The translations under genes and the position numbers were made by a program. From Candidatus Aminicenantales bacterium (lineage in GTDB: Bacteria; Acidobacteriota; Aminicenantia; Aminicenantales; UBA4085), in contig JBEKTZ010000009.1 in NCBI GenBank assembly GCA_049515535.1, positions 124,001-178,179 of the forward strand: a stretch of 54,179 bases of DNA, given 5' to 3'. The notes under the pieces are model-generated. The model saw only the letters and a program-made list of their open reading frames with translations, was not told the origin of the DNA and ran no database searches. Shown here piece after piece: positions 4,851 to 51,971 of this stretch (the stretch's first letter is position 1; each line of letters opens with the position of its first letter).

Positions 4851-4918
4851 GTCAAGGGACGAGCCTTCGCGGCGGAAGTGGACCCCCGGGTAAAGCCCGG
4901 GGCCCCGGCCGCCGTGGA
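4851..4918 (+). repeat. Palindromic repeat family A, copy 1
   Basis: GTCAAGGGACGAGCCTTCGCGGCGGAAGTGGACCCCCGGGTAAAGCCCGGGGCCCCGGCCGCCGTGGA, 4 nt past the stop of the 4923 gene. Confidence 0.95.
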
Positions 4919-4922
4919 CGCG

Positions 4923-5696
4923 TCAATAAAGACCGGTGAAGACGACGTCCGCGTGGAAAATCTCCTTGTTCTTGGGACGGAGTTTCTTATCCACGCTCTC
5001 TTTGATGTTCAGATAGAACCAGAAGCGGTCAAACAGCCTCAGCTTTTTGATATAGTACTCGGCGAACTGAGTGCTGTTGTCGACGATGACTCTGAAGGAT
5101 TCGTTCCCTTTTTCGTCTAAGACCGAGATTCCAGTGACCTTGCCGTCGGCGGCGGCGATCGGCTTCCCGAAGAGTTTGCCCTTGCCTTTGCCTTCCCAGT
5201 CCTCGCTTTTATTAATGTTCGTGAGCTTGATTTCTCCATAATCGGCCCGCGCCTTCTGGGAGAAATAATCGGCGGGAACGGCGGCGTCCGTTTTATTGAA
5301 AACGTTCTTGAATTGCGTCGCGCTTTCCTTGATGTCGATGCTCTGGGCGACCATGACCGAGGGGGTTTCTCGATTGAAGAAGGCCTTGACCCTGACGTCT
5401 TTGCCCATAAGGATCGAAGCGTCGCCGTTGTCCACGGGGCCCGCGGCGACGATATCGAATCCCGGGATCTGGGAGATATAAAAATATTGACCGAAAGCGC
5501 TCTTGACGGTTCCGCTGAATTCGTTCACGCCTTCCTTGATGGTCAATCCTTCCTCGGCGGCGGAGCCTTGAGCAGCGGCTTCATTAGGGGTCGGGGCGTT
5601 TCCCGCTTTTTTACAGGCCACGCTTCCCGACATGATCCATAAGAATGCCAACGCGCATATCCCGAGAACCGCGGCAGTCTTGTTCTTTAGAGTCAT
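4923..5696 (-). CDS. Hypothetical lipoprotein
   Basis: MTLKNK...SVA-C lipobox; SD GGAGGT before ATG 5696. Confidence 0.75.
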   Translation of the reverse strand: MTLKNKTAAVLGICALAFLWIMSGSVACKKAGNAPTPNEAAAQGSAAEEGLTIKEGVNEFSGTVKSAFGQYFYISQIPGFDIVAAGPVDNGDASILMGKDVRVKAFFNRETPSVMVAQSIDIKESATQFKNVFNKTDAAVPADYFSQKARADYGEIKLTNINKSEDWEGKGKGKLFGKPIAAADGKVTGISVLDEKGNESFRVIVDNSTQFAEYYIKKLRLFDRFWFYLNIKESVDKKLRPKNKEIFHADVVFTGLY

Positions 5697-5803
5697 AGCC
5701 TGCACCTCCAATATCAGAGTCCGTTCTCAAGAGAAAAGAGAGTATTTTTATATCATTGAAAAACGCAAATGTAAAGAAGAAAATAGGGAGAACGCCGGGC
5801 TCC

Positions 5804-7792
5804 TCATTTTTTCCGGCCGCCGCCGGACCGGGAGGATGAGGAAGACGACGACCCTCTCGAAGAACCGCTGCTGGAGCCTGATGACGAGCGCGAAGGCGCG
5901 CTGAATGATCTCGACGGAGAGACGGAGCTTCTGGACGGAGCGCTATAGCTTCTGGATGGAGCGCTGACGTTTCTCGTCGGGGCTGAGTAGCTCCGGGAAG
6001 GCGTCTCCGTTCTTCTCTGGGGCACACTGGAATTCCTCGAAGAGAAACCTGAACTTCGCGAAGGCGCAGCATCGTTCCCAGAGACGCTGCGGTCCCTGAT
6101 GACTCTTTGGGGAGTCGTGTTGCGCGACGTCCGCGACTCCGAATTATTCGATGAGATATCCCGCGAGGGCCTAGCCGAGAGCGGCGCGCGATTCGTCGGT
6201 TCCGTGCTTTCATATTTGCGCACGATCGTCCGCCCGTTATTGCCGTTTCTCGCCGAAGACGGATTCGACGCCCTTTCCTCCGTGTTCCGGGAGAACGAAC
6301 GGATGGCGGACCGGTCCGCCGGATTGGAAGATCTGTTTTGGAACGTATTCCGGGAGGGAAAACTGCGGATCGATGAGCCGGATCTCAAATCCCGGCCGGC
6401 GCCCGCCGCGTCTTTCCCAGCGATTTTCTGTTCGGGCCGGACGGAAGACGGCTCCGCGGACTTCCTGACGGTGGACGGCCTCAATTCCCCGCGGGAAACG
6501 CCCTTTTCTCCCGCCGCGAAGCTCTTGCTGACGCTTCTTAAGTTCTCTCGGGAAAGGACGGTCCTGGCTTTCGCCGCGATCGCGCCGTCGCGAATGACCG
6601 TGGGTCGCAGATCAGGCTGCGAGGCTCTAAGCGAGATCCGATCGATCTTGGAGATCCTGGACTGGTCCAGGGCGACCTGGGAGATTCTCCGGTTCTGGAG
6701 CTGGTTCCGATGGACCATGACCAGGCTTCTGGAATTATTGGGAAAGTAACCGTTAGAGTAGCGGTCGTAGAACCTGTTGTTGAGGATGACCCCCGGATAG
6801 TTGTAATAGCTCAGCGGGCACCAGCCGATATAATCATTGTCCCAATACCAATGGACCCAGGCGGGACCCCAGGACCAGCGGCTATAGGGGATCCAGTACC
6901 AGCCGAGATTCAGTCCCCAGCCCCACCGGCCGTAATGGGATGTGCACCAGCCCCATGGCTCATAAGAGACCCAAGTCCAGCCGATGATCGGATACCAGGA
7001 CCAGCGTCCGTCCTGATACGGCTGCCAGCCTGAATAAGCTTGCCTCGGGACCCAAACATTTCCATACGAACCCTCATAGACCCAATTGCCGTTGTCGGCG
7101 AGCTCATTTTCGTAATCCGCGTAGTCCGCAGGGAGATAGGTCCGGCTCATGGTCCGGGCATAGACGGCGTCGCGGCTCTCGTTCCAGTCGCCGAAGTCGT
7201 CGCGCCGAGAAATCATGGACGAGGATTCCGAGGTAAAACGTCCGTCAACGGCGACGATCTGCTCGCCCTCTTTGACCAGGACCGAGCCCTCTTCGCCGGC
7301 CGCTTCGGCCGAGCCGCTATAGACGCGGAATTCGGTATCCTTGTTGTCACCGATATCCACCCGATACAATCCCGCTTCCATGACGTAAAAAGATGCGTCC
7401 GGAGTATGGATCTCGAAACTCTTTTCCCTGTCGAGGCTGTTGATTCTGACGAAGAGGCTTCCGGCAAGGAAATGGATTTTGGTCGGATCGGAATCGCTCT
7501 TGGGAAGGGCTATAATGTCCACCTGGGTGAAATCGTCCAGGCGGAGGTGGTTTCGCCGGCCGAGCTGAATCTCCAGGCGTCCGTTTTTCGTCCCGAGCTT
7601 GTCGCCCTCGACGATGACGAGGTTCACCTCGCCTTGCTCATAACCCTGGTCTTGGCCGCGCTGGACATAGACGTCGCCTTTGACGTAGCTCATGCGCGTA
7701 TAACTTCCGCTGTAATATCCCTCGTTCTGAGCGAAAGCGACAAAGGGAAGAACCGCCAATAAGGCCGTTGCGATTGTGATTATCTTTTTCAT
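5804..7792 (-). CDS. Secreted FecR-domain / DUF6600-like protein with a Ser/Arg-rich disordered tail
   Basis: Signal peptide; FecR-like region (RMSYVKGDV, GDKL, FEIHTP, GLYRVD); Trp-rich region (WQPYQDGRW, WGWCTSHYGRW, WGPAWV); low-complexity C-terminus. Confidence 0.8.
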   Translation of the reverse strand: MKKIITIATALLAVLPFVAFAQNEGYYSGSYTRMSYVKGDVYVQRGQDQGYEQGEVNLVIVEGDKLGTKNGRLEIQLGRRNHLRLDDFTQVDIIALPKSDSDPTKIHFLAGSLFVRINSLDREKSFEIHTPDASFYVMEAGLYRVDIGDNKDTEFRVYSGSAEAAGEEGSVLVKEGEQIVAVDGRFTSESSSMISRRDDFGDWNESRDAVYARTMSRTYLPADYADYENELADNGNWVYEGSYGNVWVPRQAYSGWQPYQDGRWSWYPIIGWTWVSYEPWGWCTSHYGRWGWGLNLGWYWIPYSRWSWGPAWVHWYWDNDYIGWCPLSYYNYPGVILNNRFYDRYSNGYFPNNSRSLVMVHRNQLQNRRISQVALDQSRISKIDRISLRASQPDLRPTVIRDGAIAAKARTVLSRENLRSVSKSFAAGEKGVSRGELRPSTVRKSAEPSSVRPEQKIAGKDAAGAGRDLRSGSSIRSFPSRNTFQNRSSNPADRSAIRSFSRNTEERASNPSSARNGNNGRTIVRKYESTEPTNRAPLSARPSRDISSNNSESRTSRNTTPQRVIRDRSVSGNDAAPSRSSGFSSRNSSVPQRRTETPSRSYSAPTRNVSAPSRSYSAPSRSSVSPSRSFSAPSRSSSGSSSGSSRGSSSSSSSRSGGGRKK

Positions 7793-7819
7793 CGCTTTTC
7801 TCCTTCCAATGCTCTTTAA

Positions 7820-7836
7820 AGCAAGACTCGTGCCAA
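7820..7836 (-). promoter_or_regulatory. Sigma54 (-24/-12) promoter
   Basis: TTGGCACGAGTCTTGCT is an exact TGGCACG-N4-TTGC match, 27 bp upstream of ATG 7792. Confidence 0.85.
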
Positions 7837-7939
7837 GAAATTACAGGGAAATCAGCGGAAAATTCAGGCGGGAGGATAAGTCGGCAATTTCCGGTCGTCC
7901 CCATTTAAGGACAACTGCGTGTTAAATAAATCAGTCAAC

Positions 7940-7986
7940 AAAAAAAATCCCCCGCTCTCAAGGAGGGTAGGTAGAGAAGCGGGGGG
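7940..7986 (-). terminator. Intrinsic terminator of the Spy/CpxP-like gene
   Basis: CCCCCGC-t-TCTC...GAGA-GCGGGGG stem followed by ATTTTTTTT. Confidence 0.75.
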
Positions 7987-8013
7987 AAAAGCAAAACTTA
8001 TAAGGAAGAGGCT

Positions 8014-8739
8014 TCAGATTCTTCCAAACCACCTGCGGATGCGCTTGATAATGGCTCTGGCCCAGGGGCGGCCCTGCATCGCTTGACCGCGCAGCCATTG
8101 GAGACCCATCAAGCCGCGGCCCATGCCCATTCCCGGGCGCATCATGCCCTGACCCATGCCAGGCCCCATGCCCATTCCTCGGCCGGGCCCCATGCCCTGA
8201 CCCATTCCGGGGAGCGTTCCGCCGCGCATTCCACGGCCCATTCCCGGTCCCATAAACCGGCCTTGACCCATGGGGCCCATGCCCCTACCCTGCATTCTCC
8301 TCATCAAGCCTTGAGGACCACCCGCTTGTTTCAGCTTGTCAAGCTGTTCCTGGGTCAGGATCTTCTGGAGAGGATTCCGATTGGCAAGGACCTTTTTGGT
8401 CCGCTCGGCACCGAGCTTGGCGATCTGGTCGACAAGTCCGTTGATCTTGTTTTGATCGGCCTTCGCGTCCTTGAGGAGAGGGATCAACTCGCCGCGAAGC
8501 TTTTTCATCTGTTCCTGGAATACTTTCTGCTCGTCCTGGCGGGCTTTTTGCATATCCTTGATTTTCGTTTCCTGTTCCGGCGTCAGATTCAGGAAATTCT
8601 TCAGTCTGTCCTGGGGAGTATTGGGACCTTGAGCGGGCTCAGCCTGCTTTTCCGGCTTCGCCGGGGGTTGCTGGGCAAATGCGCTCACGCTCAAAAAGAG
8701 AAACCCGATAATCGTGACAGCTGCCAAATATTTTTTCAT
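8014..8739 (-). CDS. Spy/CpxP-family periplasmic protein with a Gly/Met-rich tail
   Basis: Signal peptide, two LTxxQ motifs (LNLTPEQ, ILTQEQ), helical core, GMGPGMG repeats. Confidence 0.85.
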   Translation of the reverse strand: MKKYLAAVTIIGFLFLSVSAFAQQPPAKPEKQAEPAQGPNTPQDRLKNFLNLTPEQETKIKDMQKARQDEQKVFQEQMKKLRGELIPLLKDAKADQNKINGLVDQIAKLGAERTKKVLANRNPLQKILTQEQLDKLKQAGGPQGLMRRMQGRGMGPMGQGRFMGPGMGRGMRGGTLPGMGQGMGPGRGMGMGPGMGQGMMRPGMGMGRGLMGLQWLRGQAMQGRPWARAIIKRIRRWFGRI

Positions 8740-8886
8740 CTTAAAACCTCCATTTCTATCACCATGGAATTAGACAAAGGTCCCGTCTAATCCTTGGCAA
8801 AAATTTTACCGAAATTATTGCCCTTTTAATAGGAGGCGCGAAGCCGCTTCCCAGCGCACCGGGTTTCTGCGCGGCATGTTTTTGCC

Positions 8887-9948: not shown

Positions 9949-9962
9949 CGGAATTTCTCACC

Positions 9963-10069
9963 TCCACGGCGGACGGGGTCCCGGGCTTTGCCCGGGGGTT
10001 CACTTCCGCCGTACTCGCCCTTGGATATAAGCCACGGGCGAGTGGCGAGCCGAAGGCTCGTCCCTTGAC
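9963..10069 (-). repeat. Repeat family A, copy 2, with a 39-nt hairpin insertion
   Basis: Family A sequence interrupted at 10012-10050; its 3' end runs into the GGAGGT SD of the GHMP kinase gene. Confidence 0.92.
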
Positions 10070-10116
10070 GCCCTTCCCTTCTCCCCGGTCTCCCCGGAAA
10101 AGAGATCGCGGGAAAA

Positions 10117-11085: not shown

Positions 11086-11091
11086 GGTCGC

Positions 11092-13598: not shown

Positions 13599-13604
13599 AT
13601 CGGC

Positions 13605-14606: not shown

Positions 14607-14609
14607 CCC

Positions 14610-15809
14610 TCACTCGTACTTTGCCCGGCCGAACACCGCCAGGAGAAAGACATAAGCAAAGGCCAGGGTCGGCAGGATCATCGCCGCGTGCATGCCGAAT
14701 TTGTCCGCCGCCCATCCCACGATAGGCGGGATCACGCCTCCGCCCATGATCGCCGTGCAGAGAAGGCCGGATATCGTGCCGTGGTTTTCGGCGAAGCTGT
14801 TGATCGACCCGCTCATGACCAGCGTGATGAGGACGGAGGTGAAAAACCCGCAGGCGACGAATCCCACGGCGGTCACGGTCCGGGGGCCGAAGTTGGCTGC
14901 CAGCAGGCAGACCACGGTCATGAACGAATAGATCTGCAGCATCTTCCGGCCTCCCAGCCGGTTGAGAATCGCGCCGCTGGCGAGGCGCCCGACGCCCTGG
15001 AACCCCCAGAAGAGGGCCAGGATCAGGGCCGGAAGAGTGGGAAGCACCTTGCGGAAGAACCCGGCAGCCGCGACGTTCGCGACATCCGCGGACAGACCGT
15101 GGACGCGCTCGAAAAATTTGACGATCCAGGACGCCGTTCCGACTTCCGCGCCGACATAGAAAAAGACGCCGAGCGTATAAAACAGAACGAGAGGGTTTTT
15201 CAAGAGCTTGCCTAATTGGTCCACGCGGAACCGGTCCCCGGCCGCCGCGGCCGTGGACGGAAAAATGGAAAAGAGGAGCGGGACCAGCAGCACGAAACAG
15301 AGCAGCGCGAATAAGATATAAAGGAACTGCCAGTTCCGGCCCGAGCCGCGGACCAGAGCCAGCAGAAAGGGCCCGAGAAAAGCGCCGATGCCGCAGAAGC
15401 CGATCGTGAGCGTCAGGTTGCGATGATAATTCTCCGGACGGTCCAGATGCTGGACCAGCGGGTTGCCCGCCGTCTGCAGGATGGTGACGCCCACCCCGAC
15501 GGCAAAAATCATGATCAGGACCACGAGGTAGCTCTGGGCGATGGCCACGACCAGACATCCCAGGCCCATCAGGATCACCCCGGTGAGGACCAACGGCTTG
15601 GCCCCGAAGCGGTCCATGAGCAGGCCGGTCGGAATGGAAAAGAGGCCGTAGGCGATGAAGAAGCCGAAGGCCAGGAAGCCGGCGGCGAACATGCTCAGGT
15701 TATACTGTTTGATGACTTCGGGGATGATCGCGCCCAGGATGTTCGTGATCATCCCGAACGTGAAATAGGCCAGGAAGAAAACCCAAAGCAAGCTTGAACG
15801 TTTCGGCAT
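14610..15809 (-). CDS. MFS sugar transporter (FucP/GluP-like)
   Basis: TILQTAGNP, FFYVGAEVG, AIMGGGVIP; about 12 TM segments. Confidence 0.88.
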   Translation of the reverse strand: MPKRSSLLWVFFLAYFTFGMITNILGAIIPEVIKQYNLSMFAAGFLAFGFFIAYGLFSIPTGLLMDRFGAKPLVLTGVILMGLGCLVVAIAQSYLVVLIMIFAVGVGVTILQTAGNPLVQHLDRPENYHRNLTLTIGFCGIGAFLGPFLLALVRGSGRNWQFLYILFALLCFVLLVPLLFSIFPSTAAAAGDRFRVDQLGKLLKNPLVLFYTLGVFFYVGAEVGTASWIVKFFERVHGLSADVANVAAAGFFRKVLPTLPALILALFWGFQGVGRLASGAILNRLGGRKMLQIYSFMTVVCLLAANFGPRTVTAVGFVACGFFTSVLITLVMSGSINSFAENHGTISGLLCTAIMGGGVIPPIVGWAADKFGMHAAMILPTLAFAYVFLLAVFGRAKYE

Positions 15810-15829
15810 TCTGAAACCTCCTAAGGGGA

Positions 15830-15897
15830 GTCAAGGGACGAGCCTTCGCGGCGGAAGTGGACCCCCGGGTAAAGCCCGGGGCCCCGGCCGCCGTCGG
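15830..15897 (+). repeat. Repeat family A, copy 3 (in the leader of the sugar operon)
   Basis: Near-identical to copy 1; lies between the promoter at 15927-15955 and the AGGAGG SD. Confidence 0.95.
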
Positions 15898-15926
15898 CGG
15901 GCGCTGAATTTTTCAAAGCGCCGCCC

Positions 15927-15955
15927 ATGTTACTTCAGGGCAAATCGAGAGTCAA
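15927..15955 (-). promoter_or_regulatory. Sigma70-type promoter of the sugar operon
   Basis: TTGACT-17 bp-TAACAT. Confidence 0.65.
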
Positions 15956-15971
15956 ATCTTCCCCCGGCTCG

Positions 15972-16042
15972 GTCAAGGGACGAGCCTTCGCGGCGGAAGT
16001 GAACCCCCGGGCAAAGCCGGGGCCCCCCCCAGCCGCCGTGGA
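15972..16042 (+). repeat. Repeat family A, copy 4 (+3 nt)
   Basis: GTCAAGGGACGAGCCTTCGCGGCGGAAGTGAACCCCCGGGCAAAGCCGGGGCCCCCCCCAGCCGCCGTGGA. Confidence 0.93.
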
Positions 16043-16778: not shown

Positions 16779-16975
16779 ACGAGCGGTTCCCCGTGGCTTG
16801 CCACGGGGAACCGCTCGTAGAGGGATCCAAGGGGGAGCCGCCCCCTTGGTCGCAGTCCTATGCGGAGCATAGGGCGAGAAAGGGAGGCAGGGCAACACCG
16901 TTTTATACTCTTGGGTATAAAACGGCGTGCCCGTTGGAAGGGGGAAACGCGAAGCGGGTTCCCCCTCCAAATTGA
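16779..16975. repeat. Cluster of five tandem hairpins (REP/BIME-like mosaic)
   Basis: 16779-16818 (18-bp perfect stem, CTTG loop), 16827-16849 (9 bp), 16857-16873 (7 bp), 16898-16925 (11 bp), 16934-16970. Confidence 0.8.
16927..16975 (+). repeat. Repeat family B, copy 1
   Basis: 48/49 identical to the reverse complement of 35598-35646. Confidence 0.92.
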
Positions 16976-17391
16976 TTTCTGAACCCGGAAATCGAAGCGG
17001 CCGGGCGATTTTGGGGTCAGGGATAAAGTACTCCCTCGACTCATATTTGAATCAAGGGAGATTTGAAAGGAGGGTGGGAAGAGGCTCCTTAGCGATCCTC
17101 TTCTTTTTCACAACCTCGGCGTCGCTGCGGATGAGTTTCATCAGCGCCGTAGGGCTGCGAACTCGTCCCCATTGTCTCCCGGGACGAAAAGAGCGGCAAT
17201 CCCCTTTCCTGATGGAACCATGGGTGATTTTTCGCTCATGAAAATCACCCTCGACGTCGGCCGGGGGCTAGCCGTCTTTTCTTTTTCGGGCGGAGCGGAT
17301 ATACTTTCCACTTCATCCGGCATGGAGATCGATCCGTGCCTAAAAAACAAAGGGGACCGGGTGCCGCGTCCCCGCTCAAAAGGAGGTCGCG

Positions 17392-23168: not shown

Positions 23169-24437
23169 CTATTTTTCCTGCCAGGATTTGACGACGTAGG
23201 CGCCCGAGCTGCCGAAGCCGGTGGACAGGCTCCCCAGCGCCTCGTCGTAATGGATGGCGGCGTTGTTGCTTTGGACGATTTTGTTCGCGACGACCGAGCC
23301 GAAGATTCCGCCGTTATTGGATAGCGTCACGTCCGCCTTGGGGAAATATAGCGCGCCGTAGGTGGCCGTATTGTTGCAGAATGTTTTCGACCCGCTGAAC
23401 GAATCGGTCCCGAACATGAGGAGTTTCGTCGGGTCCTGGGTTAGGTTGTTGATCAGGGCGTTGTTGGAGATGTTCCAGGTCCCGCCGAAATACATCGTCA
23501 CGCCGCAGCCGCTGTTGATCCTGAACTGGGCGTTGTTCGAGAGGGTGAACGTTCCCGTGATATAAAGAGTGACGTTCGAGACGATCGTCACGACGGCGTT
23601 GTTGCTGAGCGTGAAATTCGTATATTGACTGCTTTGGCTGAGGCTCCCCGTGCCGTTATCGCCCAGGGAATAGTCGCCTTGATACGTCAGTCCCGTGGGC
23701 TCCGGGACCGAAGGCATAGCCTTGGGCGCGCTCAGGGCGGCTTTTTGTCCGGTGATGACGGAATTGTTCCCCTGGTGGATGACGGAATTCGGGTTCGACT
23801 GGTATCCCGTCATTGCGTCGCCGTCGATATAAGCGTTATTGTCAAACGTGAGCCCGACGTTGAGGCTGGCGTAGGTCGTGGCGTTGGTCCCGACGTCGCC
23901 GTTGTGATGAATGTTCGAGCCGCCGTAAGCGCCCAAGCGCGAGTCGTAGCTGTCGATATAGGCGTTATTGTCGACCGTCGCGCCCTTGTCGCCGAAGACG
24001 CCGAAATCGAAGGTCGGCGGCGCGCCGCCGGCCTGGAGAACGACGCAGACCGTTCGCGACAGATTCGCCGAGGCGACGAAAGGCACGGATCCCGTGGATT
24101 CGATCACGGGATTGTTGCCGGCGGGATCGCCGACCGTGATCGCGATATCGCCGATGACGTCGCCGTTGGAAGCCGTGAAATTCGGGATCGTCAAGGTCCG
24201 CGATGCGCTCGACCCGCTCCATGACGAGATATTTCCATAATTCAGCTCCCAGATGGCCCGCTCCACGCCGGCCTCGGCCAGGTTCAGCGCCGCCAGGGAC
24301 TTATAGGATTTTTCGGTGATATGATAGCGGCCGGTCATCTTGAACAAAAAGGGCAGGGCCATGCCCAGCAGGACAACGCCGACCAACAAGGAAAGGAACA
24401 GGGCAGCTCCTTTCTCCCGGGGTTTGGAACGGTGCAT
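23169..24437 (-). CDS. PilX-like minor pilin with a beta-helix-like C-terminal domain (paralog 2)
   Basis: REKG|AALF cleavage site without Glu5, ALNLAEAGVERA, repeated LSNNA/NN turns, HYDEAL, KSWQE. Confidence 0.82.
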   Translation of the reverse strand: MHRSKPREKGAALFLSLLVGVVLLGMALPFLFKMTGRYHITEKSYKSLAALNLAEAGVERAIWELNYGNISSWSGSSASRTLTIPNFTASNGDVIGDIAITVGDPAGNNPVIESTGSVPFVASANLSRTVCVVLQAGGAPPTFDFGVFGDKGATVDNNAYIDSYDSRLGAYGGSNIHHNGDVGTNATTYASLNVGLTFDNNAYIDGDAMTGYQSNPNSVIHQGNNSVITGQKAALSAPKAMPSVPEPTGLTYQGDYSLGDNGTGSLSQSSQYTNFTLSNNAVVTIVSNVTLYITGTFTLSNNAQFRINSGCGVTMYFGGTWNISNNALINNLTQDPTKLLMFGTDSFSGSKTFCNNTATYGALYFPKADVTLSNNGGIFGSVVANKIVQSNNAAIHYDEALGSLSTGFGSSGAYVVKSWQEK

Positions 24438-26040: not shown

Positions 26041-27767
26041 GCAGGTCTCCTCATTTCATATCCCTGGACGAGGGCCAGCTGTTTCAGGGCGGCCCGGATC
26101 TCCATGCGGATGATGTTCGGCCTGCGGCGCGCCTGGCCTTTCAGGGCCGCGACGGCGGCCGGTGTGGCCATCGTCGCCAGGGCCTGGATGGCGCAGAGGC
26201 GGGTTTCCAGCGTCTTCGCCCTGCCGAACAGGCTCGTCCGCTTGATCAGGCCGACGAGAACGGCGCAGGCCTCGTCCGTCCGGCTCCTGGCCAGCGCTTT
26301 CAGCGCGGCTTCCTTCTCCCATGACGTCTTGCGCCGAGAAGTCTTGGCCGAGACGATCCCGATCAGCCGACGGGCCAGCTCGCCGCCGGGTGCCACCGTG
26401 ACGGCCTTCAGGACCTCGATCCGCAGCTCTTCATCCGGGTCGTCGAGAAGGGCCGACAAGCTCTCTTGGGCCGCACCGTCCTGGAACTTGCCAAGGGCCC
26501 GGACCGCCTCGATCTTCACGTCCTTCCGGCCCGTGGCGATGAATTTCAAGAGATGCGGGATCGTCGCGGCATCCGGTTTCTGCCCGAGAACGGCGATGAC
26601 CGTTTTGGCGAATTCCGGCCTGTCCTGCCCGGCCAGGTCGACGAGAGACTGAGGGACCTTCCGGGCCATGTCCTCTAAATACGATTGGGCGTCGGTCCGG
26701 AACTCGGTCTCCCGGACGCGCTCGAAGAGGTCCGCGGCCAGGGACAGGGAGTCGGGGCCCACGAATTTCAAATATTCGAAAAAGGTCCGGGAGTTGGGCA
26801 CGCGCTGTTCAAGCGCCTTCTCCCGGATCTTGTCCAGGGGAAAGCGGGCTCTGACCGCGCCGTAGAATTTTTCGAGCTCCCGGCCTTTCCAGGGCGTTGC
26901 GGGCGCGCTCAGGCGGGCCACTTCGTCCATCCGGTTCAAGAAGCGGACGGCCTGGGTGAAATCCATTTTCAGGGCGAGATGGTAAAGATAATTCTCCAGG
27001 GACGACAGGATCTGGGCGAAGTCCTCGGGCCGGTCCTCGAGGTTGAGGACTTCGAACATCATCTCGGGGAATTCTTTTTCGACGGATTCGCGGCGCTCGG
27101 CGCCGAGCCTGTCTTCCAGGGCCTGCACGTCGCTTTCGGTGAGGGGGGCGAAGAGACTTCCGGCCTCGCCGGACTCCTGGGAGCCCTTCCGGCACAGTTC
27201 CATGCTCCGGCGGAAGATGTCCTCGGCGTCTTCGGCCGTGAACTCGATGGAGCCCTCGTAGAGGGCCTCGCGTTTGATGTCGAACTCGCGGGGCAGGTCC
27301 TGGTTGCCGGAGAGTTTGGCCTCGATGAACTCGTCGGGCGAGAGATAGCGGATGTGCTCGAAATCCCGCTGCCAGAGGGCGTCGACGATGTCGCCCACGT
27401 CGACGGGAAGGAAGGAGACATTCCGGACGACATCCAGGAAGTCGGAGAACTCTTCGCTCGTCAGCCCTTTCATGAAAGCCAGTTTCTGCATCCCGTCCTT
27501 GTGGAAAAAGTAGGGCAGGCTGCGGAGGACATTGTCTTCCTGGTAGACGGTCTCGTCCAGATAAAGGAAGGACCCCTGTTTGATGTCGAGCTCGAGCTCG
27601 CCGTGGTCGTCGAGGAATTTCCGGAGCCGGCAGAAAACGCCGTTCCGGAGCTGGATGATCGATTCATGGCCGGGGGGGAAGATCTTCGTCGCGGAGACGG
27701 CCCGGACCAGGGCGGAGCAGAGGTCCTTGACGAGCTCGAACAGCTTCTTATCGGCGCCCTCGGTCAA
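26037..27767 (-). CDS. HEAT-repeat protein
   Basis: C-terminal HEAT repeats (VKIEAVRALG, LLDDPDEELRIE); N-terminal IFPPGH domain; TTGA overlap with the PilX-like gene. Confidence 0.82.
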   Translation of the reverse strand: MTEGADKKLFELVKDLCSALVRAVSATKIFPPGHESIIQLRNGVFCRLRKFLDDHGELELDIKQGSFLYLDETVYQEDNVLRSLPYFFHKDGMQKLAFMKGLTSEEFSDFLDVVRNVSFLPVDVGDIVDALWQRDFEHIRYLSPDEFIEAKLSGNQDLPREFDIKREALYEGSIEFTAEDAEDIFRRSMELCRKGSQESGEAGSLFAPLTESDVQALEDRLGAERRESVEKEFPEMMFEVLNLEDRPEDFAQILSSLENYLYHLALKMDFTQAVRFLNRMDEVARLSAPATPWKGRELEKFYGAVRARFPLDKIREKALEQRVPNSRTFFEYLKFVGPDSLSLAADLFERVRETEFRTDAQSYLEDMARKVPQSLVDLAGQDRPEFAKTVIAVLGQKPDAATIPHLLKFIATGRKDVKIEAVRALGKFQDGAAQESLSALLDDPDEELRIEVLKAVTVAPGGELARRLIGIVSAKTSRRKTSWEKEAALKALARSRTDEACAVLVGLIKRTSLFGRAKTLETRLCAIQALATMATPAAVAALKGQARRRPNIIRMEIRAALKQLALVQGYEMRRPA

Positions 27768-29074
27768 ATGATCTTCTCCTGCCAGGACTTCACCGAATAA
27801 GTGCTCGACGCGCCGCCACCAAAAGGCGGCGTGACGCTGCCGAGCGCCTCGTCGTAATGGATGGCCGCGTAATTCGCCCCCATGATCGTGTTGGCCGTGA
27901 CGGCACCGTAAATCGTGCTGCCATTGGCCAGCGTCAGGTTGGCTTTTGGCGTGTAAATACAGGCATACGTATCCGCGCTATTGGCAAAGGTCTGGGCCCC
28001 GGTGAAGGCGTCGGTCCCGAAAATCATCAGCTTGGTCGGATCCTTCGAGAGATTGTTGATCTGGGAGCCATTATTGATGTTCAACCCTCCCCCGAAATAG
28101 AGGGTGACGGAGCAGCCGCTGTTGATTTTGAACTGGGAAGTATTGCTCAAAGTGAACGTGCCCGTGATGTAGAGCGTCACGTCCGCCGTGACCGTGACGA
28201 CGGCGCTATTGACGAGGCTAAAATTCCCGTATTGGCCGCTGGCGTTGATCGTAGTGCTTGTTCCAACCTTTGAATAATCTCCCCTGGACGTCAATCCGAC
28301 CGGGGGCGTCACCGAGGGGAGCGTTTTTGTGCTCGTGAGCGCCGTTTTTTGTCCGGTGACGCTCGAACTGTTGACAACCTGAATGGCTTGATTGGGGTCG
28401 GACTGATAGCCCGACGTGGCATCGCCGTCGACCACGGAGGAGTTGATCAAGGAAATGGCCCCATAGCCGGTCGCGTTCGTTCCCACGTCGCCGTTGTGAT
28501 GGACATTCGTTCCGCCGTAGAGCCCCAGCCGGGAATCGTAGCTGTCGATCCGGGAGTTATTCATCATCGACACGCTCGTGTTGCCGAAGATCCCGTAGTT
28601 GAAGAGCGGCGGAGAGCCGCTGCCCTGGAGAACCACCCGGAGGGTCTTCGTGACTTTGTTCGTCCCGATATGCACGACGGATCCCGTGGCTTCGATCACG
28701 GGATTGACCGTTCCGGGATTGTAAACCGTGATGGCGATATCGCCGACAACGGTCCCGTTGGAGGCCGCGAAATTCGCGATCGCCATCGTCCGCTGGGTCG
28801 ACGTGCCGCTCCACGTGCCGATATTGCCGTAGTTGATTTCCCAGATCGCCCGCTCGATGCCGGCCTCGGCCAAATATTGCGCGGCCAGGGAATTATACGA
28901 CTTCTCGGCCGTCCGGTACCGGTTGGCGAATTTGGTCACGAACGGAACGGCGATGATCAGCATGAAGACGGACACGAGAAGGGCGATGGCCAGGACCGAG
29001 CCGCGTTCGCGTCCGGTTCGGCGGCGGCCAAAGGCTCGAGGCAAATTCATGGTTGATCTCCCGAATCGTTTCAT
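27764..29074 (-). CDS. PilX-like minor pilin with a beta-helix-like C-terminal domain (paralog 1)
   Basis: RERG|SVLA, YLAEAGIERA, IDSYDSRLG, HYDEALG, VKSWQEK; clearly paralogous to 23169..24437. Confidence 0.82.
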   Translation of the reverse strand: MKRFGRSTMNLPRAFGRRRTGRERGSVLAIALLVSVFMLIIAVPFVTKFANRYRTAEKSYNSLAAQYLAEAGIERAIWEINYGNIGTWSGTSTQRTMAIANFAASNGTVVGDIAITVYNPGTVNPVIEATGSVVHIGTNKVTKTLRVVLQGSGSPPLFNYGIFGNTSVSMMNNSRIDSYDSRLGLYGGTNVHHNGDVGTNATGYGAISLINSSVVDGDATSGYQSDPNQAIQVVNSSSVTGQKTALTSTKTLPSVTPPVGLTSRGDYSKVGTSTTINASGQYGNFSLVNSAVVTVTADVTLYITGTFTLSNTSQFKINSGCSVTLYFGGGLNINNGSQINNLSKDPTKLMIFGTDAFTGAQTFANSADTYACIYTPKANLTLANGSTIYGAVTANTIMGANYAAIHYDEALGSVTPPFGGGASSTYSVKSWQEKII

Positions 29075-33996: not shown

Positions 33997-34024
33997 GATC
34001 GCTTTCCCCCGGAAAAAAGCGATC
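33997..34024. terminator. Hairpin between the convergent asnB and tilS genes
   Basis: GATCGCTTT...AAAGCGATC; no clear U-tract. Confidence 0.4.
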
Positions 34025-35408
34025 ACTCTTCGATTTTCTTCAGGCGAAAAATTTTTCTCGTCAGCGCCGTGACCTTGAAATCCTCGGCCACCGGCAACCC
34101 GGGGGCCCAGACGATCTTTCCGCGCGAGCAAAAAACCGGAAGCCGGTTCCGTTCGGCAAGAGGGATTCTTTTCGCCCGCAGAATTTCCTTCAGCTTTTTC
34201 CGGCCCGGCGCTCCCAAAGGCCGATAGCGGTCCCCTTCCTTGCGCGAGCGCACGAGAAGAGGAAAGCGGAGTTTTTCGGCATCGCAGTGGCAGCTCTTTT
34301 CATCGTCAAAAGCGATCCTCGCCCCGGACGTTTTCTTCATCCTCTCGCCCGCAAAGGCCATTCCCGCTCCCGGAATGCGAAGAGGATGCCGGCCGTTCCA
34401 AGATAACGCATAAGCGTTTTTCGCAGCCGTCCCGGCTGTCCTGGAGATGAATTCCTTCTCCCGGCGCAGGCGGAGCTTGCCCGGCAGCGTCAATTCCCGC
34501 CCTTCGACGAGACGCAAAACCGATTCGATATCCTCGAAGGAGATCCGCCTCAAGTCGCCTTTCATTTCTTCGATGAAGGCTCGGACGGCGCGCCGGCTCA
34601 AGCCCTTGGGGAGATGGGCGAGCCGGCGGGCGTCCAGGGAGACGCGCCGGCCGTTCCGGTCGATCAGACGGGCATATTCTCTCCGCGTCATCTCGTCGAA
34701 GACGGCCTCCTCTTCCTGGAGAATCCCGGCCAGGCGGCCGAGCCTCGGGACGACGCGCGGCTCATAATTTCTCTCCAGATAGGGGATCAATTCCAGGCGG
34801 ATCTTGTTCCGGAGGAAGCGTTTGTCGGCGTTGCTTTCGTCCGTCTGGAAGACCAGCCTCTTCCGCCGGCAATAGGATTCGATGTCTTTTCTGGGGATTT
34901 CCAGGAGCGGCCTTATGATTTTCGGGCCGACAACGGGAAAGATCCCGGACAGCCCGCGGGGCCCGCTGCCCCGCAGCAGCCGGATGAGGAACGTCTCCGC
35001 CTGGTCGTTGAGATTGTGGCCGGTCGCGATCTTCGTCGCCCCGGCCCGGGCCGCCGCCTTTTCGAGAAAATCATATCGGAGGATCCTCGCGGCCTCTTCG
35101 AGATTGAGCTTATGGGAGCGAGCGTAAGCTTTGACGTATCGCTTCTTGACGATCAGGGTCAGGCCCGAGCGGCGGGCCGTCGCGCGGACGCAGCGCTCAT
35201 CTTCGTCCGCCGCCGGGCGAAGCCGATGATTGAAATGGGCCAGGACGAGATCGAACGGGGTCTCGCTCCGCAGTTCGATGAGCAGGTGGAGAAGGGCCGT
35301 CGAGTCGGCCCCCCCCGAATATGCCACGAGCACGCGGTCGCCGGGAACGATCATCCGGAAACGGGCGACCGATTTTTGGAATTGGGTGAAAATTTCCCCG
35401 GCCATCAT
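34023..35408 (-). CDS. tilS: tRNA(Ile)-lysidine synthetase
   Basis: AYSGGADS, HFNHRLR, EEAARILRY, GHNLNDQAET, RPLL, RNKIR, C-terminal TilS domain. Confidence 0.96.
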   Translation of the reverse strand: MMAGEIFTQFQKSVARFRMIVPGDRVLVAYSGGADSTALLHLLIELRSETPFDLVLAHFNHRLRPAADEDERCVRATARRSGLTLIVKKRYVKAYARSHKLNLEEAARILRYDFLEKAAARAGATKIATGHNLNDQAETFLIRLLRGSGPRGLSGIFPVVGPKIIRPLLEIPRKDIESYCRRKRLVFQTDESNADKRFLRNKIRLELIPYLERNYEPRVVPRLGRLAGILQEEEAVFDEMTRREYARLIDRNGRRVSLDARRLAHLPKGLSRRAVRAFIEEMKGDLRRISFEDIESVLRLVEGRELTLPGKLRLRREKEFISRTAGTAAKNAYALSWNGRHPLRIPGAGMAFAGERMKKTSGARIAFDDEKSCHCDAEKLRFPLLVRSRKEGDRYRPLGAPGRKKLKEILRAKRIPLAERNRLPVFCSRGKIVWAPGLPVAEDFKVTALTRKIFRLKKIEE

Positions 35409-35487: not shown

Positions 35488-35561
35488 TGGCGGCGCAGGG
35501 ATTTGAACCCCGGACTCTACGGATATGAGCCGTATGCTCTGACCAACTGAGCTACGCCGCC
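35488..35561 (-). tRNA. tRNA-Met (CAT), elongator type; CCA not encoded
   Basis: GGCGGCGTAGCTCAGTTGGTCAGAGCATACGG-CTCATAT-CCGTAGAGTCCGGGGTTCAAATCCCTGCGCCGCCA folds as a cloverleaf with G1-C72 paired. Confidence 0.93.
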
Positions 35562-35572: not shown

Positions 35573-35601
35573 ATTTTAGAAGAATCGCTCCGCCAAGTCA
35601 A
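35573..35601 (-). promoter_or_regulatory. Sigma70 promoter of the tRNA
   Basis: TTGACT-17 bp-TAAAAT, 11 nt before the tRNA 5' end. Confidence 0.78.
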
Positions 35602-35646
35602 TTTTGAGGGGGAACCCGCTTCGCGTTTCCCCCTTCCAACGGGCAC
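35598..35646 (-). repeat. Repeat family B, copy 2
   Basis: TCAATTTTGAGGGGGAACCCGCTTCGCGTTTCCCCCTTCCAACGGGCAC on the plus strand; 6 nt from family A copy 5. Confidence 0.92.
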
Positions 35647-35652
35647 CGGGAA

Positions 35653-35720
35653 GTCAAGGGACGAGCCTTCGCGGCGGAAGTGGACCCCCGGGCAAAGCCC
35701 GGGGCCCCGGCCGCTATGGA
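35653..35720 (+). repeat. Repeat family A, copy 5
   Basis: GTCAAGGGACGAGCC...CCCCGGGCAAAGCCCGGGGCCCCGGCCGCTATGGA. Confidence 0.95.
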
Positions 35721-43783: not shown

Positions 43784-43822
43784 TTTTCCTCCATCTTATT
43801 TAAATTAATTGGGAGATAGAGG

Positions 43823-45946
<2,124 letters not shown>

Positions 45947-45959
45947 GGGGGACCTCCTT

Positions 45960-46027
45960 GTCAAGGGACGAGCCTTCGCGGCGGAAGTAGACCCCCGGGC
46001 AAAGCCCGGGGCCCCGTCCGCCGTCGA
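45960..46027 (+). repeat. Repeat family A, copy 6
   Basis: Directly abuts the AAGGAGG SD of the prolyl oligopeptidase gene. Confidence 0.95.
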
Positions 46028-46088
46028 AATGGGCGATGAGTTCTTTTTCTATCATAGGCCGAAATGGCGGTCAACGGGATTGGTCCCG

Positions 46089-48179: not shown

Positions 48180-48721
48180 ATGATTAAAATGATGAGACGC
48201 GCCGGTCCATGGACGCCGATCGTCAGCTCGTTTTCGATGTCCGCCGTCCGGCTCGGGCCGGTGACGAGCGAGACCTGCGGTGACGGGAGATCGGTCCGGG
48301 CGAGATGTTTTGACAATTCCGGCGCGATCGCCTCGAGATTCTGGACGATCTTCCCGTTTTCCAGCAGGCAGAAGCAAATCTCCGGGAGCGTCCAGACGTT
48401 CTTTTCCTCGTCGCCCCGGTCGAAATGGACGAGCGTCCCGGTTTCGGCGACGCCGAAATCCGCGGCGACGATGCCCGCCTCGACCCAGAGGCCATCCGGC
48501 TCCAACCTTGATTCAAGATGGGGAAACGCTTCGGCGAACGGCCCGCTTTCTTTCAGGTCCGGCGCGATCAGCGCCTTCCCGATCTTGTGTTCCCGAAAGA
48601 ATTGATTCAGGAAGTCCATGACGTCTTGGATATTCGAAAAGCGCTCGATTTCAGCGCCGCCGAATCGAGCTCTGTCGATGAATTTTTCGATGAGTGAGTT
48701 CACAGGATCCGCGGCGGTCAC
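48176..48721 (-). CDS. lutC: LutC/YkgG LUD-domain protein
   Basis: GVAETGTLV, TGPSRTADIENELTIGVHGP; GTGA overlap with the aldolase gene. Confidence 0.9.
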   Translation of the reverse strand: MTAADPVNSLIEKFIDRARFGGAEIERFSNIQDVMDFLNQFFREHKIGKALIAPDLKESGPFAEAFPHLESRLEPDGLWVEAGIVAADFGVAETGTLVHFDRGDEEKNVWTLPEICFCLLENGKIVQNLEAIAPELSKHLARTDLPSPQVSLVTGPSRTADIENELTIGVHGPARLIILII

Positions 48722-50040
48722 CACTTCCCCGCCTTCTTCGGCTCCATCTTCCGCAAATCCAGCCCCTGTTCGAAAGCGCCGATCCTGTAGAGACAGATCT
48801 CGCGGAGCGAGGACGGATGATGGAGGACCTCGGACAGCGATTGCTGCCCGACCGCCCAAACGCCGCCGCCCCTCACGACGACGACCTTATACTCATGGAG
48901 CAGCCGGATGAGAGTCTCCGGATCCGGCTTCGGCGGGACAACCGGAATGACCAGATACAGGAAGCTCCCTTCGGCATCGATCGGCACGATCCGGTCGCTC
49001 GGCCCGTCCTCGCCCGGATACCGGAAATGCGCCTGCGCCTCGGCGTCCGGCAGGTAACAATGCATCACGGTCTGGAAATCGGTCGCGGCGTAAATGGTCT
49101 TGTGCCAGCCGAGCTCCGCCGAATCCGACGCCTCCGCCCGCAGGGGGATCTTGAGCAGCGGCCCGCCGATGTCGCGCGGCATGGACGCTTTCGGAGCGTA
49201 GAGAAGATCGTTCACGCCGCGGACGGACATCGACCCCGTGTGGAACGGCGACAGCCGCGATTCGAAGATGCGCGTGCCCGCCTTGCGAAATTCCCTGAGG
49301 ATCTCGGTTTCCTCCGCGAACGCATTGACCTCGTCGCCTTCGATTTCGAACCGGTCGGGTGGATACGAAAAAAACGCGGCAGGATCGGCCCGCAGGCGCG
49401 TCCTCAGCGCCTCGATATCCACGCCCAATTTTTTTGCGGCCCTCACGACGGCGCCCGCATTGTTCGCGACGCACTGGAGGAAAAACGCCTCTTTGAGCGT
49501 CCGGCCCCTGGCGAAGGTCCCGTGCGCCTGGATGACCGTCGCCGGATGATCGGCCAGGCGCTTCGGGATGATCTCGGCCATTTCGGGAGAACCGCTCGGC
49601 ACGGCCACCCAGTCCACGTGGACGTGGTCGCCCAGGTGATGGAAGCCGAGCGGATCGATCGGCACGAAATCCGCCGGCCGGCCGGGCTTCTCGGCGTCAT
49701 CGAGCGTGGCGATAGCCAGATCTTTCGTGTGGGCGTGGATCGAAGCCCGCGCCCCTTCGATCGACAGGATCCGTTGATGGATATCGGTTTCCGAAGAGGC
49801 CTTGTAATATCCGTAATCCGTCTCGGTCGCGGATAGAAAACAGATCTGGTCCGGCTCGAGATCGCCCTTCTGCGACCCCGTGGCCGTGATGATGATCTGG
49901 TCTTCGCCGGCGTCGCCTTTGATCCGGACGGCCATGTTGCCGCTATGGCTGTCCTGGATATCGTAAATGAGCGAGGCGCGGCCGACGGACGTGAAGAGAC
50001 GCAGGATCTCGTCACTGACGTTCCATCCATGGCGATTCAT
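48718..50040 (-). CDS. Class II aldolase/adducin family protein with two tandem domains
   Basis: Domain 1: SGNMAVR, ASSETDIH, IHAH, QAHG. Domain 2: TGSMSVR, SAELGWH, MHCY, VRGGG. Confidence 0.82.
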   Translation of the reverse strand: MNRHGWNVSDEILRLFTSVGRASLIYDIQDSHSGNMAVRIKGDAGEDQIIITATGSQKGDLEPDQICFLSATETDYGYYKASSETDIHQRILSIEGARASIHAHTKDLAIATLDDAEKPGRPADFVPIDPLGFHHLGDHVHVDWVAVPSGSPEMAEIIPKRLADHPATVIQAHGTFARGRTLKEAFFLQCVANNAGAVVRAAKKLGVDIEALRTRLRADPAAFFSYPPDRFEIEGDEVNAFAEETEILREFRKAGTRIFESRLSPFHTGSMSVRGVNDLLYAPKASMPRDIGGPLLKIPLRAEASDSAELGWHKTIYAATDFQTVMHCYLPDAEAQAHFRYPGEDGPSDRIVPIDAEGSFLYLVIPVVPPKPDPETLIRLLHEYKVVVVRGGGVWAVGQQSLSEVLHHPSSLREICLYRIGAFEQGLDLRKMEPKKAGKW

Positions 50041-51971
50041 CTTGGTCGTCCTTCGATTCTCAGGGATCTCATGAGAGCGCCGCTGGGACGGCCGGTTTCG
50101 TCCCAGCCCCGCACCTCATAATAATCCCGCCGCATCCTTTCCTGGGCTTCGCGCGAGACGGTTTTCTTTTCCCCGGCGACGATGATCGGGACTTCGCTGA
50201 AGCGCGGCGGGAGGATGTCGTCCTCCGCGGTCGCCCCCGCCTCGTAATTGATCAGCCTTTCGAGGGTGGCGATCCGGTTGGCGATATCTTCCAAACGCGC
50301 TTCGGAAAAATCCATGCCCGTGACGCCCGTCATCATCCGCGCCCAGGGACCGGTGTCGAAAGCGAACCCCGTGAAACGGCATATGCCCAAACTGTCCTGG
50401 AGGATGCCCTTGTTTTGCATGTTCCGGACGGCTATGGGCGACTGAAGCAGACTGAAGCGCGGGATTTCCTTGGTCCCGCCGAAGAAGGCGAGCGAGACCG
50501 CGTACCCTCCGCGCAGATGGCAGGCGCCGGTGGGCGACGTCATGTATCCGAGCGCCTGGGTGAATGAGGCGCGCGGGTCGTAGCCGGGGATTTCGAGCCG
50601 CTTCACGGACATCGACAGCTCGGGACGGCCGAAACGGCCGGCCAGGCGGAACGATCCTTCGGCCAGGAGATCACCGATTCCGCGGCGGTAGGCCGTGGCG
50701 CGGGCGAGCGGTTCCAAAACCGCGGCGTTTCCGAAACGGAGATCGAAACCACCGGCGGCCTCGGACGGCAGATGGCCGCCCTCGAAGAGTTCCATAGCGC
50801 AGGCCACCGTGCCTCCGAAGCTCATGGTGTCCAGGCCGAGTTCGTTGCACCGGTAATTGGCTCGCGCGATCGCCTCGAGATCATAGACGTCGCAGACGGG
50901 GCCCATCATGACGATCGTTTCGTATTCGGGACCTTCGCCCCTTTCAATCCCGCCGGCGCCGGATTCCACGGCGGACGGGGCCCCGGGTTTTGCCCGGGGG
51001 TCCACTTCCGCCGCGAAGGTTCGTCCCTTGACCCGCGTGTGGCGCTGACAGCCGATCGGGCAGAGATAACATCCTCCCGCGCGCTCTAGCAGCGTCCTGG
51101 CGAGCGTCGCGCCGGAGATCTTTTCCAGATTCTCCTCGATATGCCGGCTGTCCTGGAAGTTCCTGTGCGGCAGCATGCTGATGACATTGATCAATTCGAT
51201 GAGCCCCGCGGTCCCGAGCTCGCGGAGGAGACGCTTGGTGACGGGCGCCTGTTTCATGAGGTAGAGCGCCTGCTCGTAGCCGGACTGGTAGCGTTCTTTG
51301 TCCTTGATCTGGATCTTCGCCTTGCCCGAGACGCGGATGGCCTTGAGATGCTTGGCCCCCCAGATCGCCCCGGGCCCGCAGCGGCCGTAAACCCGGTTTT
51401 TATCGTTCACGACGGCCGCGATCCGGACGAGGTTTTCGCCGGCCGGACCGATGCAGAGAATCTTCGGGCGGCTGCCAGGCTCTCCGTCCGCAATCAAGGC
51501 GTCGGTGGTCTGATGCGCGTCGAGACCCCAAAGACGGCCCGCCGGCGCGATCGACGTTTTTTCCGGGGTGATATCGATGACGACGGGTTCAGCGGCGCGC
51601 CCTTTGACGACGACGGCGTCATAGCCCGTGGCCTTGAACGCGGCGCCCCACGTTCCGCCCGAATTCGAGGTTCCGATAAGCCCGGTCAGCGGCGATTTGA
51701 AGACCATGTGCCCGCGGCCGGCGGTCGGCGCGTTCGTCCCGATAAGAGGGGACGCGGCGATGACGACGACGTTGTCCGGGCCGAGGGGATCGCAGCGCGG
51801 GTCCGCGACGTCATAAAACAGGCGCGTGGCCAATCCGCGTCCGCCGAGATAGTCGGCCACGAGCTCGGCGGCCAGCGGTTTGATCAGGATATCGCCCGTG
51901 GTCAGGTCAATCTCGAGATATCGGCCGTGAAAGCCATAGCGCGCATCGCTCATTTTTGTTTTGAAATCCAA
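50037..51971 (-). CDS. aor: Aldehyde:ferredoxin oxidoreductase family (W/Mo-pterin)
   Basis: LGGRGLA, KSPLTG, IGPAGENLV, GAKHLKAI, CYLCPIGC, EGPEYET, GLDTMS, GACH, YYEVRGWD. Start may be 51953. Confidence 0.93.
   Translation of the reverse strand: MDFKTKMSDARYGFHGRYLEIDLTTGDILIKPLAAELVADYLGGRGLATRLFYDVADPRCDPLGPDNVVVIAASPLIGTNAPTAGRGHMVFKSPLTGLIGTSNSGGTWGAAFKATGYDAVVVKGRAAEPVVIDITPEKTSIAPAGRLWGLDAHQTTDALIADGEPGSRPKILCIGPAGENLVRIAAVVNDKNRVYGRCGPGAIWGAKHLKAIRVSGKAKIQIKDKERYQSGYEQALYLMKQAPVTKRLLRELGTAGLIELINVISMLPHRNFQDSRHIEENLEKISGATLARTLLERAGGCYLCPIGCQRHTRVKGRTFAAEVDPRAKPGAPSAVESGAGGIERGEGPEYETIVMMGPVCDVYDLEAIARANYRCNELGLDTMSFGGTVACAMELFEGGHLPSEAAGGFDLRFGNAAVLEPLARATAYRRGIGDLLAEGSFRLAGRFGRPELSMSVKRLEIPGYDPRASFTQALGYMTSPTGACHLRGGYAVSLAFFGGTKEIPRFSLLQSPIAVRNMQNKGILQDSLGICRFTGFAFDTGPWARMMTGVTGMDFSEARLEDIANRIATLERLINYEAGATAEDDILPPRFSEVPIIVAGEKKTVSREAQERMRRDYYEVRGWDETGRPSGALMRSLRIEGRPR
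50964..51032 (-). repeat. Repeat family A, copy 7, in frame within aor
   Basis: Encodes VKGRTFAAEVDPRAKPGAPSAVE (residues 314-336 of the listed ORF). Confidence 0.95.

Follow-up and report, generated by a model that had tools for sequence, protein, structure and literature searches.

Family A copies in the window

The window analysed here is a 54,179-nt stretch of a Candidatus Aminicenantales genome (contig JBEKTZ010000009.1, positions 124,001–178,179). Its subject is a short, dispersed palindromic element, hereafter family A, which an earlier note made from the sequence alone had described as seven copies of an approximately 68-nt unit with a common start. All seven copies were confirmed at the places and on the strands first described, and each begins GTCAAGGGACGA. 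The unit is, however, smaller than claimed: it is 63 nt long, with a 102-nt long form and a degenerate 66-nt copy, and the last 5 nt of the supposed unit are a host target sequence. The inner hairpin pattern ascribed to every copy is exact in four of the seven, whereas the remaining three contain one or two mismatches.

The first 63-nt copy (4851..4913, plus strand) is intergenic and is followed by the target GTGGA at 4914–4918; the strand that would be transferred is the minus strand. The 102-nt form, which contains an extra 39-nt hairpin module, is located on the minus strand at 9968..10069, with genes for an ATP-binding cassette (ABC) permease and a GHMP kinase on either side and with its target at 9963–9967. 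A plus-strand copy of 63 nt (15830..15892, target GTCGG) lies immediately upstream of the ribosome-binding sequence of a major facilitator superfamily gene (14610–15809, minus strand), and the degenerate 66-nt copy (15972..16037, plus strand), which shows slippage in a C-run, is followed by the target GTGGA. Two further 63-nt copies are also on the plus strand: one (35653..35715, then ATGGA) is near a tRNA gene and adjoins a partial copy of another hairpin family, family B, and the other (45960..46022, target GTCGA) is directly upstream of the ribosome-binding sequence of a prolyl oligopeptidase gene on the minus strand. The last 63-nt copy (50970..51032, minus strand) lies in frame within an aldehyde:ferredoxin oxidoreductase (AOR) gene (50037..51971, minus strand; AFOR_N and AFOR_C), the reading frame of which is open through the insertion. 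Its target at 50965–50969 is kept in the empty allele.

Boundaries, target and empty sites

Family A is a discrete and recently mobile unit that is present or absent between close strains and generates no duplication. The base composition 5' of the head is random, and the 3' end (...GCC) is followed by a degenerate pentamer, which is GTCGA in 37, GTGGA in 21 and GTTGA in 6 of 98 copies. Read on the presumed transferred strand, the target is thus TCGAC or TCCAC, less often TCAAC, and the element ends with TTGAC. Logan contigs, the long pieces of which are mostly 95–99% identical, contain the empty AOR allele: in three of four runs, which derive from different studies, exactly 63 nt are skipped at 50968–51030 with TCCAC retained, and the fourth run shows the same gap with one other letter. 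This skip can be placed with two ambiguous bases. Similarly, of 19 orthologous AOR loci, 16 encode 30 residues against 51 in the window (one encodes 29, one 32, and one was not matched by the pattern). Metagenome copies aligned to G000, the source genome of the window, show a zero gap at their empty sites, and six copies are nested at the internal GTGGA of another copy, with the outer copy intact in three.

Because these three kinds of empty site keep the pentamer, it is host sequence, and the empty sites together with the nesting define a unit of 63 or 102 nt without duplication. The claim that terminal inverted repeats and target duplications are absent held: conspecific contigs omit precisely the 63 nt, and the two ends (TCAA... 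and ...GCCG) are unrelated. Since filled and empty alleles segregate among close strains, the target and the ends are known within a base or two. The first G of the head is replaced by A in 10 of 98 copies, compared with a background G-to-A rate of 2% (p = 7e-5), which suggests that this G is host-derived. The guide rule of IS608-type elements would put the cut after the first head base, and the same rule fits, by eye, the left ends of the IS200 loci inspected. Applied after the fact at the hairpin-foot GGGG or CGGG, it predicts the two commonest targets. The cut probably falls on one side or the other of the pentamer's last base.

Genome-wide copies, lengths and folding

The G000 assembly (3.45 Mb, 32 contigs, 94% complete) contains 96 exact 12-nt heads, and a BLAST search identified 130 loci, as opposed to 0–1 matches for each of ten shuffled queries. 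A head-and-tail scan, in which nested copies were counted twice and the degenerate window copy at 15972 was missed, yielded 116 full copies, of which 53 are 63 nt long, 45 are 102 nt and 8 are 129 nt, the remaining 10 having different lengths. The copies show a mean identity of 96% to the consensus, and nearly all are distinct (48 of the 53 short and 42 of the 45 long copies).

Two coding-related properties had been ascribed to family A. The first, length variation in multiples of three, applies to 106 of the 116 copies in G000 but to only 30 of 42 measured copies from other genomes, a 101-nt form being frequent there (9 of 42). The second, an absence of stop codons in five of six frames, is true of the 63-nt consensus but is at chance level, with base-shuffled versions of a window copy averaging 4.5 stop-free frames. 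Given these two findings, selection for lengths in threes is no more than a possibility.

The fold of the 102-nt form comprises three hairpins side by side (z = −5.8 and −6.3 on the two strands), and the 63-nt form contains a single strong hairpin within an outer stem (z = −1.7 and −2.4). More modular variants are present in relatives. Tandem arrays of the inner modules were also observed, with a 78-nt spacing in L356 (G027:C21) and 42- and 36-nt duplications in L119. Rfam returned no match to family A (nothing at E ≤ 1 over the 102-nt copy) and a single tRNA for the whole window.

Insertions in genes

A strict test requiring coding sequence on both sides placed 9 of 116 family A copies within genes, compared with 430 of 600 random target sites, and a looser gene caller placed 19 of 115 copies in coding sequence. 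All nine strict cases involve the 63-nt form, and three different frames are used. Pfam matches were obtained for 11 of 13 candidate open reading frames with an insertion, and the hosts include glutamyl-tRNA synthetase (GluRS), an aconitase-family subunit, an LptD-type protein, an M28 peptidase, a histidine kinase and a glycosyltransferase. The insert of some candidates is outside the matched domain and may precede the true start. The GluRS with the insert is the only full-length GluRS in the assembly; among its orthologues, 5 of 13 loci matched the search pattern, every one being 21 residues shorter. The AOR insert also adds 21 residues (about 313–333). It is flanked by the Cys cluster and the GPEYE motif, at a point where the alignment with solved structures is interrupted, and the insertion region is common to no other protein in the database. 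The AlphaFold model of this protein was of low confidence (mean pLDDT of 59.8) and was not used. The 102-nt form is found in frame in two metagenome proteins, matching PF02567 and PF00275, which we take to be the PhzF and EPSP-synthase families, respectively. The in-frame insertions are real, although the argument from stop-free frames is not supported. Gene insertions appear to be mostly purged and sometimes tolerated when in frame, and the extended proteins, judged from their sequences, are presumably functional.

In distinct long copies (145), paired sites have changed less than unpaired sites (0.04 versus 0.09 per site), with 13 compensatory pairs where 3 would be expected if kinship is ignored. 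This conservation of stems, together with the frequent orientation of the TTGAC end towards the start of a nearby gene, would fit a functional RNA or DNA motif, such as a terminator, a −35 donor or an mRNA stabilizer, that has been spread by recombination. However, family A shows no preferred orientation to genes (61 of 115; 30 tandem sense versus 27 antisense) and no Rfam match, and no excess of −10 boxes was found behind TTGAC (2 of 85 versus 26 of 680), leaving promoter creation by this end unsupported. The empty sites, the strain-level presence or absence and the insertions into coding sequences largely refute this explanation, which we consider highly improbable.

Polarity and strand bias

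Read on the other strand, family A has the layout target-element-TTGAC and therefore a polarity like that of HUH single-strand transposons. According to excerpts of PMC5027513 and PMC7290912, members of the IS200/IS605 family insert their left end 3' of a short target and favour the lagging-strand template. In G000, the strand of family A that would be transferred is the G-rich strand at 83 of 115 copies and at 78 of 108 independent sites (p = 4e-6), and a plain skew measure gave 80 of 108 sites; the direction of genes does not account for this bias. The lagging-strand template is equated here with the G-rich strand. Targets are commoner on the opposite strand (856 versus 1083), contrary to the direction of the bias. 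The same lean is present in hairpin families B (23 of 32) and C (14 of 18), which are also TTGA(C/T)-ended, whereas IS91-like ends (8 of 16) and the repeat associated with the RAYT-like gene (5 of 11; RAYT, a tyrosine transposase associated with REPs, which are repetitive extragenic palindromes) show no bias.

Candidate transposases and proposed mode of transposition

G000 encodes one IS200 tnpA, one RAYT-like gene and six IS91-like Y2 fragments, and contains no member of the TnpB zinc-finger family. At the level of hairpins, the ends of family A resemble those of IS200/IS605 elements: the main hairpin agrees with the right-end hairpins of local IS200 elements at 24 nt out of 28 (E = 0.004 in a comparison confined to the tested loci), and the TTGAC end is shared, although no element with the same ends was present among the loci examined. 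The G000 IS200 begins and ends with TTGAC; its identity is 95% to an intact copy in G014, where family A copies are most numerous, and 93% to that of G012, which has a single family A copy. In a second IS200 clade, seen only in genomes without family A, the right-end hairpin is nearly equal to the main hairpin.

Because its hairpins resemble local IS200 ends, family A is most likely a palindrome-associated transposable element (PATE) that an IS200/IS605-type Y1 HUH transposase mobilizes in trans by the single-strand 'peel and paste' route; we put the probability of this reading at approximately 0.6. The enzyme is proposed by likeness, because no examined locus has family A ends around a gene. 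Under this model, the strand reading target-element-TTGAC would be transferred and would fold upon its exposure in the lagging-strand template. Both ends would be cut by a TnpA dimer, freeing a single-strand circle, which would be pasted at a new degenerate pentamer that stays 5' in the host. Most insertions in genes would be purged, with in-frame ones surviving, and IS91-like elements carrying a copy would ferry family A between genera and families.

Several observations weigh against this model. The sole IS200 tnpA of the assembly has an internal stop, and IS200-type TnpA is present in only 3 of 14 high-copy genomes, compared with 38 of 246 genomes of the order overall. Neither the examined Y1 nor the examined Y2 loci are flanked by family A ends: no such transposase was found at two Y1 and five Y2 loci of G000, at nine Y1 loci in five high-copy genomes or at the best 30 Y1 loci from the 246 order genomes. 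Likewise, no transposase was found between close pairs of family A copies, and no TnpA was detected near any collection locus with family A. The 63-nt form has one strong hairpin only, whereas IS200/IS605 ends normally have one each, and covariation between tail variants and targets is not significant (p = 0.15 and 0.36). Finally, the strand bias was replicated weakly and partially in relatives (46 of 78 pooled, p = 0.14; 19 of 25 in G024, 13 of 21 in G027, 5 of 6 in G008 and 9 of 26 in G014), using 20-kb windows around listed copies, a method that gave 81 of 116 in G000; with short windows taken locally, the counts of 43 of 76 and 21 of 37 were not significant. The proposal of the earlier note, a non-autonomous element moved by an HUH enzyme, is favoured by the empty sites, polarity, strand bias and IS200 hairpin likeness, but no enzyme gene flanked by family A ends was found at the loci examined.

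A RAYT (TnpA-REP) acting on family A as a REP-like unit would also belong to the Y1 enzymes. The plus strand carries a GTGG tetramer at a distance of one base from the main hairpin's foot, and each of the five high-copy genomes searched has RAYT-like Y1 genes; canonical REPs are described in the excerpts of PMC6006769 as carrying GT[AG]G near the hairpin foot and as inserting in frame in genes, including the gene for the transposase itself. However, GTGG is among the most variable parts of family A (10–20% per position), the copies are single rather than inverted doublets, and what flanks the RAYT-like genes here is never family A but unrelated repeats of their own. Because the RAYT-like gene of this genome has its own different repeat, a RAYT is the weaker option, and we regard it as unlikely. 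This gene, L002 (G000:C13:96186-97260; about 310–355 aa), is flanked by its own inverted repeat, which is also dispersed as about five other doublets.

Two side observations concern the IS200 elements. L001 (G000:C9:107890-108510), the IS200 with the tnpA stop, is inserted cleanly at TTGAC in a transposase-like gene, presumably of the IS1 type, with the two halves in register. In one IS200 clade (L011, L045, L053, L056-L065 and L070), the left-end guide tetramer appears by eye to covary with the target (TGAC, TTAC, TTAG, TTAT, TAAC, TAAG, GCAC or CTAA), and this clade appears to form a natural panel of retargeted ends.

Passengers in IS91-like transposase genes and distribution

Among the loci listed, 19 of 116 from metagenomes (14 at one site) but only 1 of 113 from the genome collection are in or beside Y2 transposase sequence; the metagenome loci are partly redundant, and 11 of 101 distinct flanks among the matches listed are linked to Y2. 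Six distinct family A sites, in both orientations, were identified along the Y2 gene. A supposed seventh site was rejected as native Y2 sequence, and an apparent case of three copies in one Y2 gene was actually a single head-to-head chimera of two. One insertion with a diagnostic head variant is common to G196, G164, G008 and G040, which represent three families, suggesting hitchhiking. Identical inserts are also present in flanks that are merely 83–90% alike, which points to recombination or repeated insertion, and the tree of Y2 flanks contains no supported branch. When translated, the insert-bearing Y2 genes were all broken or cut by the locus end, and the full-length Y2 proteins of 422 residues appear to be free of the insert, an assessment made from identity with 7 of the 120 inspected.

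These passengers raise the possibility that the IS91-like Y2 HUH transposase itself mobilizes family A, with the insertions in its own gene reflecting action near the site of its synthesis. Rolling-circle chemistry would give the same target-element-end polarity without duplication, and IS91 members are described in the excerpts of 10.1101/2025.01.24.634351 as using a tetranucleotide target without duplication. In two genomes without the dispersed family, moreover, inspected copies with the head motif lie in Y2 remnants (the only copy of G012 and two of the three inspected loci of G040). However, the local IS91-like right ends (oriIS-like) are unlike family A ends and continue into different sequence, and, as noted above, they are unbiased. 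Y2 is also present in 35 of the 96 genomes of a family in which family A is absent (0 of 96), and in G000 only about 2 of 116 copies are within the about 5 kb of Y2 remnants, near the neutral expectation. Mobilization by Y2 is therefore improbable, and hitchhiking on a target that is common, mobile and selectively neutral is the most economical reading. Family A thus appears to have spread between bacterial families as a passenger in another transposon. Solo IS91-like right ends and broken Y2 fragments were observed at about 20 sites in G000 (e.g. C9:12163, C12:48156 and C10:140313).

The IS91-like family was detected in 92 of the 246 order genomes and the family A head in 21, with at least 4 copies in 14. 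Seven of these 14 high-copy genomes belong to the same family as G000 (5 to 165 copies) and seven to one genus of another family; long copies in other genomes are 85–95% identical. Titled records with family A are mostly Candidatus Aminicenantes. There was no match in viral contigs, plasmids or phages, and no RNA holder of family A was listed. A 401-genome sample of the phylum, outside the order, gave single 14-mer matches only, the same as the control pattern. Cross-phylum transfer was rejected, as Eubacteriales-titled loci coincide in match coordinates with genomes of the order of G000 and the element body is missing from four single matches in other phyla. A Spirochaetes-titled record contains one full copy, the flank of which is common to loci of the order, and this record may be misbinned.

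Comparison with known elements

Family A is real and mobile, and it represents a new family of an already known kind of element. PATEs have been reported from Haloquadratum (PMC3119063), Geobacillus (PMC10055086) and Halanaerobium (PMC7290912), and PMC4853749 provides further comparison literature. As far as the excerpts of these papers go, family A resembles PATEs in having neither terminal inverted repeats nor target duplication, in being too short to code, and in using a short target 5' of the left end that is retained in empty alleles. High copy number, strain-specific insertions and nesting in mobile elements are also shared, as are subterminal palindromes in the 102-nt form, where they lie near both termini (three hairpins, z about −6); the 63-nt form has one strong hairpin. 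Unlike for PATEs, no parent IS of family A was found in the loci examined, the target is degenerate, the shortest unit has a single strong hairpin in 63 nt, and copies survive in frame in genes and are carried inside IS91-like genes. Small size alone is not new, because a 52-bp terminal-only PATE is mentioned in a supplement legend of PMC3119063.

In-frame palindromes are known from the Rickettsia palindromic elements (RPEs; PMC10969869) and the intragenic GTAG/CGTC REPs (PMC3733652), which, in the excerpts, likewise interrupt unrelated enzymes and add 20–34 residues; the CGTC repeats also have no dedicated transposase beside them. Family A differs in lacking a conserved CGTC tag, the base before the head being random (C in 35% of 98 copies), and no likeness in sequence to these repeats was noticed. 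About a tenth of its copies are intragenic, as opposed to nearly half of the RPEs described there, and a mechanism is indicated for it by the target, the empty alleles and the strand bias. The IS200/IS605 elements IS608, ISDra2 and ISGst share with family A a 5' target kept in the host, an end motif resembling the target, the absence of duplication, the lagging-strand-template bias and similar hairpins, but family A contains no tnpA, tnpB or iscB, and guide-target covariation is not significant. REPs and REPINs, as presented in the excerpts of PMC6006769, also have a short hairpin, many intergenic copies and occasional in-frame insertions; family A, in contrast, forms no inverted doublets, flanks no RAYT-like gene and has a GTGG that is present but variable. 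It is also distinct from classical miniature inverted-repeat transposable elements, which have terminal inverted repeats and target duplications, and from IS91-derived elements, as its ends are unrelated to the local oriIS-like ends. No description of family A was found in the literature listings searched, although the repeat tables that supplement PMC3733652 and PMC3119063 may be relevant here.

What is new is the empty allele at strain level, along with the target, the polarity, the bias in strand and the passengers in IS91-like genes. Family A joins the single-strand mobility of PATEs with the RPE-type insertion of peptides into working enzymes, which are usually described apart. We tentatively suggest, while considering it doubtful as a whole, that the 63-nt single-hairpin unit is near the minimum for HUH transposition, is tolerated in essential enzymes through its length in threes, and rides on, or is moved by, IS91-like transposons into new genera and families. 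If this is true, it would offer a testable mechanism for the entry of RPE-like palindromes into protein-coding genes, which is lacking in the excerpts of the literature, and the 21-residue protein insert would be scarlessly reversible. The passenger copies in IS91-like genes provide a concrete route across family borders for a non-coding element.

Neighbouring repeats and other features of the window

Hairpin family B is present in the window at 16781–16976 (plus strand) and 35595–35652 (minus strand), and in about 45 regions genome-wide. It is about 165–195 nt long, is TTGAC-ended and has the same hairpin as the G000 IS200, and is likely a PATE of that IS200 clade. Family C (G000:C1:294752-294866 and about 18 other sites; 105–108 nt) has a hairpin like that of the second IS200 clade; its target and its end are each TTGAT or TTTAT, with apparent covariation of both.

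The tRNA gene at 35488–35561 (minus strand; anticodon CAT by eye) is directly upstream of tilS (34023–35408, minus strand), which encodes the enzyme modifying tRNA-Ile(CAT). At 52830–54179, the window becomes AT-rich and contains a gene with a TaqI-type specificity domain (53289–54119). Related runs lose depth over this region, suggesting a strain-specific island. The TaqI site, TCGA, equals the core of the commonest family A target, which is probably a coincidence. Two paralogous DUF7305 genes (23169–24437 and 27764–29074), about 70% alike in DNA, are present in a type IV pilin-related cluster.

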